From positions 64,192 through 128,191 of the forward strand of contig CAKKQB010000013.1 in assembly GCA_919901915.1 (NCBI GenBank): a stretch of DNA of 64,000 bases. Reading direction: 5' to 3'. Shown here one piece after another: positions 15,201 through 15,617 of the stretch. Origin of the DNA: Omnitrophica bacterium GWA2_41_15. GTDB taxonomy: Bacteria; Omnitrophota; Gorgyraeia; Gygaellales; Profunditerraquicolaceae. The translations under genes were made by a program, and so were the position numbers. The notes beneath the pieces were generated by a model. The model saw only the letters and a program-made list of their open reading frames with translations. It was not told the DNA's origin and did no database searches. The stretch's first letter is position 1. Each line of letters begins with the position of its first letter.

Positions 15201-15617
15201 TTAATACCCTGACCCCTGCGTTTGTGTTGCCGAACTCCAAACCCTGCCTGTACTTGCGTCATAAATCCAACCCGCGGCAGTATTAGCTGCCTCTGCAACG
15301 CCTGCTACGACATTCGTACATAACGTATAAGGATTAGCAGGAACTCCATACGCCATAGGCCCGCCCGGAGAAGACGCTAAAGCCGTTAAGCTTGGCCATG
15401 TGGCTGTGCCTGAAACCGCGGTTTTAGCATACCAGATACTCACACCACTGCGCAATCCTCCTAATGCCCCTTGCACTGATGACCTTTTAGCATCATTCTG
15501 TAAACTAAAAAAAGTTGGAATAGATACCGCCGCCAAAATTCCCAAAATAACAATAACCATAACCAACTCAATTAAAGTAAAACCGCTTCTCTTGCTTAGC
15601 TTCACTCCCCCCCCCAT
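15201..15617 (-). CDS. pilA: major type IV pilin, copy 2 (mature part identical to copy 1)
   Basis: ATG 15617 gives MGGGVKLSKRSG|FTLIEL. GTG 15605 aligns exactly with the copy 1 ATG (405 nt each). A G9 tract lies between them. Confidence 0.85.
   Translation of the reverse strand: MGGGVKLSKRSGFTLIELVMVIVILGILAAVSIPTFFSLQNDAKRSSVQGALGGLRSGVSIWYAKTAVSGTATWPSLTALASSPGGPMAYGVPANPYTLCTNVVAGVAEAANTAAGWIYDASTGRVWSSATQTQGSGY
15607..15615 (-). repeat. homopolymeric G9 tract (C9 on + strand) at the 5' end of pilin copy 2
   Basis: ttcactccccccccccattct, counted as 9 C. Confidence 0.9.

Follow-up and report, generated by a model that had tools for sequence, protein, structure and literature searches.

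A run of nine G residues lies between two in-frame start codons of a type IV pilin gene of Omnitrophota. The question that it raises is whether this homopolymer switches the gene by slippage, as a first, sequence-only reading had proposed, or whether it belongs to the signals from which the gene is translated. We followed it in a window of 64 kb (the whole stretch of DNA analysed, 64,000 nucleotides), in three further assemblies of the same locus, and in loci of relatives. The G run is real and looks like an ordinary G-rich ribosome-binding site for one of two tandem pilin copies. As a switch it is unproven, and at most it is a candidate rheostat. The structural part of the sequence-only reading, namely the homology of the GTG with the ATG of the other copy and the Shine-Dalgarno-like (SD-like) character of the run, held; its phase-variation part gained no support, the four assemblies displaying no variation in length.

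Two tandem pilin genes in a pilus cluster

The gene with the G run is the upstream member of a tandem pair on the minus strand. From its GTG, this pilin (copy 2; 15201..15605, minus strand) has 134 aa and is identical to P0124; the other pilin (copy 1; 14737..15141, minus strand), situated 464 bp downstream, has 134 aa from an ATG start and is identical to P0001. Their mature parts are the same. An exact 421-bp repeat, extending from codon 4 to 23 nt beyond the stop, occurs at 14714..15134 in copy 1 and at 15178..15598 in copy 2 (both minus strand), with a period of 464 bp. The copy-1 gene begins ATGAGGTTA, with AAAGGAG and 8 nt ahead of its start, and the copy-2 gene begins GTGAAGCTA, with the G run directly ahead. 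That the product is a pilin, and one of two tandem copies, had been claimed from the sequence and is borne out by a type IV prepilin profile match (N_methyl, PF07963; 32 bits against a cut-off of 21.2, E = 7.7e-08) and by a short basic leader with a Gly end, after which come F/M at +1, Glu at +5 and a hydrophobic helix, the processing region being KRSG followed by FTLIELVMVIVILGILAAV (also read as KRSG followed by FTLIELV). Exact-protein look-ups of the 138-aa form, of both 134-aa forms and of P0001 returned no record. The named homologues are from Candidatus Omnitrophota, and the pilin cluster members P0121 and P0125 lead to the same locus in metagenomes of the Hainich aquifer, well H43.

The neighbourhood is one of pilus assembly. 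A PilC-type platform protein (T2SSF; 16072..17331, minus strand; PF00482, E = 2.5e-51) adjoins upstream, and the minus-strand cluster continues from it through a small pseudopilin, the two pilins, a DUF2281/PemK toxin-antitoxin pair and a TPR membrane protein to minor pilins, PilM_2, a response regulator, a PAS-histidine kinase-PilZ protein and a PilB-type ATPase (T2SSE + MshEN); the ATPase, PilM_2 and the minor pilins all lie within 14 kb. The DUF2281-like antitoxin and the PemK/MazF toxin occupy 14123-14634, with pilin copy 1 on one side and the TPR membrane protein on the other. In a sister lineage the pilin is directly followed by the TPR gene (L084:576-756), so that the toxin-antitoxin pair is an insertion in the present lineage. 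The window as a whole has a strong strand asymmetry (C 24.1% vs G 16.4% on the plus strand), and 39 of its 40 ORFs of at least 150 aa are on the minus strand.

Immediately upstream of the tract, the pseudopilin gene is split into ORFs of 81 and 54 aa (15651..16057, minus strand) by a 1-nt deletion beside an A run, where the window has AAGAAAAAATATTGAC and the sister lineage AAAAAAAAAGTATTGAC (L085:187-612). The 54-aa ORF begins at a TTG overlapping the TGA stop. With one base restored, a protein of 135 aa results that aligns end to end with intact pseudopilin orthologues. The break is common to all four assemblies, and a further orthologue (L012:2560-2990) has an in-frame TAA at the same spot, its C-terminal part being still conserved. 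Judging from these sequences, the split gene could be a two-piece protein or a case of recoding rather than of simple decay; as a -1 ribosomal frameshift site, the A run offers an imperfect heptamer (G AAA AAA).

The intergenic regions near the pilus genes also carry arrays of the 9-mer ACACGGATA, on the minus strand and with a spacing of 10-12 bp. With at most one mismatch it has 33 matches, against about 8 expected, a count reached by 0 shuffles. Its sites lie (minus strand) at 8212-8254, 13989-14043, 14694-14734, 15180-15198 and 15636-15644, with a weaker group at 57400-57452, and arrays are present on both sides of the toxin-antitoxin module. The 9-mer forms hairpins just upstream of both pilin ribosome-binding sites as well, and a similar CTATCCGCTATCCGC is found upstream of the pilin in L064. 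The arrays may serve to bind a regulator, or may represent a small repeat element.

The sequence identity of the two pilin copies has to be read with the assembly method in mind. Over 12.4 kb, the three long assemblies have 0 differences outside the pilin and three sites inside it, all of them non-synonymous SNPs mirrored in both copies (15382/14918, 15320/14856 and 15286/14822). As the differences are confined to these three sites, the assemblies are near-clonal. Sites 2 and 3, 34 bp apart, are always linked, and site 1, 62 bp away, assorts independently; this is the pattern expected if an assembler merges two slightly different paralogues into a single graph edge, on the assumption of the default metaSPAdes k-mers, which are at most 55. 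The mirrored SNPs are no evidence of concerted evolution of the copies, since a de Bruijn assembly draws both copies from the same graph edge. The two copies have probably been collapsed to one sequence and are not truly identical, and they may in truth differ at up to three residues (A/D, C/R, A/V). Tandem near-identical pilins in short-read metagenome assemblies call for corresponding care.

The shortest of the assemblies, a Logan contig (L002:1-980; SRR32696707), has a different arrangement, in which the G9/GTG start and one pilin gene are joined to the sequence downstream of copy 1, without the 43-nt inter-copy junction. This may be a real deletion or copy-number variant, or an assembler shortcut. 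The sister lineage has two tandem pilins at L085:631-1663, with mature parts identical as far as sequenced and with the leaders MRLNRRSG and MRLSRRSG, the second gene being broken by a scaffold gap (N run). Because this pair is tandem too, near-identical tandem pilins are a trait of the lineage, and one that is hard to assemble.

The G run and the start of the upstream pilin gene

On the minus strand, the start of copy 2 reads ...TTAGAATGGGGGGGGGAGTGAAGCTAAGC... and, over a longer stretch, ...GTGTTAGAATGGGGGGGGGAGTGAAGCTAAGCAAG...; direct reading agrees with the string and the coordinates that had been given for its ATG, G run and GTG. The homopolymer (G9, or C9 on the plus strand) spans 15607..15615, the G of the upstream ATG (15615..15617) being included in the nine, and A15606 separates it from the GTG at 15605-15603. 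The codons ATG GGG GGG GGA GTG are in frame and open an ORF of 138 aa (15201-15617). In the 64-kb window this is the sole G/C run of at least 8. There is no enrichment of long G/C tracts in the 64 kb of genome covered: G8 has 2 matches, against a mean of 1.81 in dinucleotide-preserving shuffles, 50 of 100 of which reach 2, and the loci of relatives contain 11 G/C runs of at least 8 in 669 kb (~1 per 61 kb). With the frequency at chance level, only the placement of the run in a pilin start region is notable.

Alignment of the regions upstream of copy 2 and copy 1 identified them as diverged paralogues with a common plan, in which a ACACGGAT...ATC[C/T]GTGT hairpin is followed by [C/T]A(A)GAA[A/T]GG[A/G]G. 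The predicted hairpin of copy 2, of 9 bp and built on ACACGGATA (15621..15645, minus strand; obtained from the fold, the inverted repeat I6 and the alignment), ends 4 nt before the ATG, and its paralogue stands ahead of the copy-1 SD at 15160-15199. The same alignment pairs the GTG context GTGAAGCTAAGC with the copy-1 ATG context ATGAGGTTAAGC, in agreement with the earlier proposal that the GTG is the positional counterpart of that ATG. It also pairs GAATGGGG of copy 2 with the copy-1 GAAAGGAG and, in the sister lineage (L084, L085), with AGGAGG or CGGAGG, which places the G run, proposed earlier to be SD-like, in the Shine-Dalgarno position with respect to paralogous and orthologous genes alike. 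Since the upstream regions are paralogous, the GGAG of copy 1 has its homologous counterpart in the first G's of the run. The remainder of the run takes the place of the spacer, the distance from the first G to the start being 10 nt vs 12 nt in copy 1. The ATG, which has no SD of its own, corresponds in this alignment to the AAG of copy-1 GAAAGGAG.

In the sister lineage (GCA_017973895.1), whose pilins are 79-81% identical to those of the window and also tandem, the starts consist of AGGAGG or CGGAGG, 7-8 nt and an ATG, at the same place as here. These starts are canonical, and the G9/GTG arrangement is thus the derived state of a formerly canonical ribosome-binding site. G-rich SDs are a recurring theme among the relatives: runs of G5-G6 act as the SD of related pilin genes in seven loci (L012, L025, L035, L060, L064, L104 and L125), and in a comparison covering 286 pilin-like gene starts from 167 related loci no upstream G run exceeds 6, so that G9 represents the extreme of this theme. 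Being such an outlier, it also leaves room for a special role beyond that of a plain ribosome-binding site.

Several observations bear on which codon starts copy 2. The GTG (15603..15605, minus strand) aligns with the copy-1 ATG and was picked by the gene callers in the three other assemblies (P0121, P0124 and P0125; MKLSK...). It gives an 8-aa leader, MKLSKRSG ahead of FTLIE, which matches the leaders of the homologues inspected (5-8 residues). Where inspected homologues have longer called N-termini, these mostly show 'KGGE' or 'GGG' just ahead of an internal Met, which is in-frame translated AGGAGG, as verified on the DNA for P0008 and P0018. Against the GTG stand its weakness as a start codon relative to ATG and the presence of the in-frame ATG 12 nt upstream. 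We infer a moderate preference for the GTG, which is probably the true start.

Modelling of the pairing between the tract and the anti-SD, for which a generic CCUCC 16S tail was assumed, gave a duplex of -10.5 kcal/mol vs -8.2 kcal/mol for copy 1, whose canonical AAAGGAG (15150..15156, minus strand) lies 8 nt upstream of its ATG with a modelled spacing of 7. With the same generic tail, the most stable registers on the tract lie 1-2 nt from the GUG, owing to the 3' end of the run being 1 nt from the GTG, and a distance of 5-6 nt is reached only by the 5' G's. A recognisable SD precedes 24 of the 40 long ORFs of the window (about 60%), so this is an organism that uses SDs.

Taken as a whole, the G run is probably the SD-plus-spacer segment of the initiation region of the upstream tandem major type IV pilin gene. 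Translation would then most likely begin at the GTG (15605) and yield the prepilin MKLSKRSG, FTLIE and so on. The 5' G's, in the place of the copy-1 GGAG and at a distance of about 5-6 nt from the GTG, would pair with CCUCC in the tail of the 16S rRNA, G-U pairs being tolerated. The ATG at 15617 would be a by-product of an A-to-T change (GAAAGGAG to GAATGGGG) and may contribute some initiation, with a 12-aa leader as the result. Cleavage at G-1 removes the leader, so either start yields an identical mature pilin.

Two other roles for the same nucleotides were weighed against this one. Were the ATG the real start, the run would encode Gly-Gly-Gly in a 12-residue cleaved leader, MGGGVKLSKRSG, and would be ordinary coding sequence. 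Of the two start codons ATG is the stronger, and the reading frame is open from there on; 16 of the 40 long ORFs of the window are without an obvious SD, so SD-less initiation at the ATG is possible; and in the predicted fold the AUG and the G run are unpaired, immediately 3' of the hairpin. However, the leaders of the family have 5-8 residues and the longer calls are over-extensions through the SD, the ATG aligns with an AAG within the copy-1 SD region, and the gene callers preferred the GTG, all of which makes an ATG start rather doubtful. Far less probable still is a role at the level of transcription, in which TGTTAGAAT, a sequence overlapping the ATG (15616..15624, minus strand) that resembles an extended -10 box (TGnTATAAT) on plain reading, would direct initiation inside the G run, and the length of the tract, or the reiterative addition of G's, would determine where a nearly leaderless mRNA begins and how well it can be translated. 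TGnTAGAAT fits the extended -10 consensus, and espR provides a documented case of translation modulated by poly-G at the transcription start (PMC11898584). However, nothing acceptable as a -35 box was found, TAGACA, the best match, being 20 nt off, and the promoter scan missed TGTTAGAAT for want of a -35 at 16-18 nt upstream, whereas a far better promoter, with 11/12 matches, stands about 170 nt upstream. A GUG that is 2-5 nt from a 5' end is, moreover, a poor leaderless start, which weighs against the transcriptional alternative.

That better promoter is a near-consensus sigma-70-type sequence, TTGACT-17-TATAAT with an upstream TG (15787..15815, minus strand), and is probably, as far as its motif tells, the likeliest pilin promoter; the motif is present in L085 too. 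It is predicted to lie within the pseudopilin coding sequence, exactly at the split, and is found in the intact sister gene as well (L085, about 450-480). Neither between the pilin copies nor after them was an intrinsic terminator found. An Rfam search around the pilin genes returned no family and a single sub-threshold match, to Flavo-1, and on this ground a c-di-GMP or other riboswitch was rejected.

Tract length and the case for phase variation

The run is G9 with identical flanks in four of four assemblies, namely the window, two metaSPAdes assemblies (L001, ERZ1292640; L003, ERZ1292638) and the Logan contig of SRR32696707. PRJEB36505 comprises samples from well H43, and for the libraries of this Hainich well a NextSeq 500 supplied the reads (2x150 bp) and metaSPAdes the assembly (PMC8672522). 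The sequence-only reading had expected heterogeneity of tract length and had named two findings that would speak against a switch, uniform length in deep read data and a length conserved across strains. On the second of these, no variation was found among these four near-clonal consensus assemblies, in which minority variants would not show. As a test of length invariance this is weak, since it compares near-clonal consensus sequences and no reads. Other sources added no further variant of the tract: a DNA pattern scan of metagenome_contigs, with a tract of 3 to 18 between exact flanks, gave no match; a second metagenome scan, by protein, gave only relatives of at most 72% identity, none with the tract; and a look-up of the flanking 54-aa ORF gave, among the matches listed, the two known Hainich contigs only.

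The concordance of the assemblies also bears on the possibility that G9 is an artefact of sequencing or assembly, either the poly-G of a two-colour chemistry or a misjoin at the repeat boundary. The NextSeq 500 of the Hainich libraries is a two-colour instrument, and the tract is 9 nt from the boundary of the 421-bp repeat. Nevertheless, an identical G9 with unique flanks on both sides recurs in three metaSPAdes assemblies produced separately, of which two have a named coverage of 33-43x, an independent Logan assembly of another run has it too, and poly-G artefacts arise at read ends, not as internal 9-mers. An artefact is extremely unlikely, and the poly-G explanation was rejected on the strength of the four concordant assemblies.

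The effect that slippage could have was explored by modelling. Nine G's are within the range in which slippage occurs (about 7-8 or more G/C), and the dependence of the ATG frame on tract length, another point of the sequence-only reading, was recovered: of the lengths modelled, G6, G9 and G12 are the only ones with the ATG in frame. With G8 or G11 it would open a uORF, MGGE or MGGGE, ending in a UGA that overlaps the GUG, and at G7, G10 or G13 it would open an overlapping ORF of 15-17 codons. The tract lies between two in-frame starts, and what a change in length does would depend on which of them is used. The GTG with a G-rich SD remains at every length modelled, so that any OFF state would be leaky; a change of one G would shift the SD register by 1 nt. 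Such a change would touch one of two copies with the same mature protein, and its predicted effect is modest. Since the GUG and its SD persist, and since copy 1 has a canonical ribosome-binding site and the same mature protein, slippage is predicted to do no more than grade the output of one copy, without abolishing pili.

A true contingency locus, in which slippage would reversibly switch or grade copy 2 through the frame of the ATG and the SD geometry of the GTG, much as in Neisseria pilC or Haemophilus lic1, has several points in its favour. G9 is long enough for hypermutability, phase-variable G/C tracts of 7-19 having been tabulated in Neisseria; its place is the beginning of a gene for a surface filament, with an in-frame start codon on either side; none of the 287 pilin gene starts compared has a longer G run upstream; a 1-nt indel beside a homopolymer disrupts the adjacent pilus gene; and in the possible single-copy arrangement of the Logan contig, the G9 start would be the sole start. 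Weighed against these are the constancy of G9 in all four assemblies and across three pilin haplotypes, where known loci differ among strains, the absence of a tract excess in the window, the predicted leakiness of an OFF state, the supply of the same mature pilin from copy 1, and an ATG that has no SD and whose homologue in copy 1 is not a start. We consider such a locus unlikely. The claim of phase variation, as it had been made, is unsupported by the available data and functionally weak; slippage is possible in principle.

A more elaborate version, which we hold to be more improbable again, would make G9 the first contingency locus in Omnitrophota, a sliding SD and spacer between two in-frame starts that gives one pilin paralogue three translational states (AUG + GUG; a uORF coupled to the GUG; an overlapping out-of-frame ORF). 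Together with gain and loss of tandem copies, these states would allow a groundwater nanobacterium to tune its dosage of pilin or the proportion of slightly different pilin paralogues. If the tract does switch, homopolymer phase variation of pili would extend from host-associated pathogens to an uncultured groundwater phylum, free-living or epibiotic, and there would be a testable handle on how these cells modulate an attachment organelle. As it stands, the locus is mainly an illustration that a G-rich ribosome-binding site can become a homopolymer.

Comparison with known systems

A close likeness is in the pilin genes of other Omnitrophota, in which a G run likewise stands at the SD of an orthologous prepilin gene (in L012, AAAGGGGGG-N9-ATG; in L025, AAAGGGGGTGAAATATG; in L064, AAAAGGGGGCATAAAAGTG), and of which those in L064 and L104 also have a GTG start. 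These relatives have 5-6 G's and a non-G spacer of 5-9 nt, whereas here there are nine G's, the spacer is absorbed into the run, and an in-frame ATG stands ahead.

In the lic1 and lic2 loci of Haemophilus influenzae, repeats lie between alternative in-frame ATGs, and their length selects the start and grades expression, lic1 having three levels. A repeat tract between alternative start codons is shared with the present locus. The lic tracts, however, are CAAT tetranucleotides in coding sequence and their variation is demonstrated, in contrast to the homopolymer described here, which would double as an SD and is G9 in all four assemblies.

In N. gonorrhoeae pilC1/pilC2, a poly-G of G9-G15 brings about translational phase variation (Jonsson et al., 1991, as summarised in PMC5320596), and the known phase-variable tracts of Neisseria differ among strains (PMC5320596). 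As far as that summary describes pilC, the two cases have in common a poly-G of similar length just after a start codon of a pilus gene, with one third of the lengths in frame. By the same account, the pilC tract is in the only frame, with a complete OFF state, and varies among strains, unlike the pilin gene studied here, which has a downstream in-frame start, a second copy and an invariant tract in four assemblies.

A poly-G in the 5' UTR of M. tuberculosis espR alters the efficiency of translation without a frameshift; it lies 144 bp upstream of the start, acts through UTR folding, and has recurrent indels across 26,903 isolates (PMC11898584). By analogy with espR, a graded, non-frameshift effect of tract length is plausible at the pilin start. 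In contrast to the espR tract, the one described here stands at the start codon and not 144 bp upstream, and it is known from four assemblies as against 26,903 isolates.
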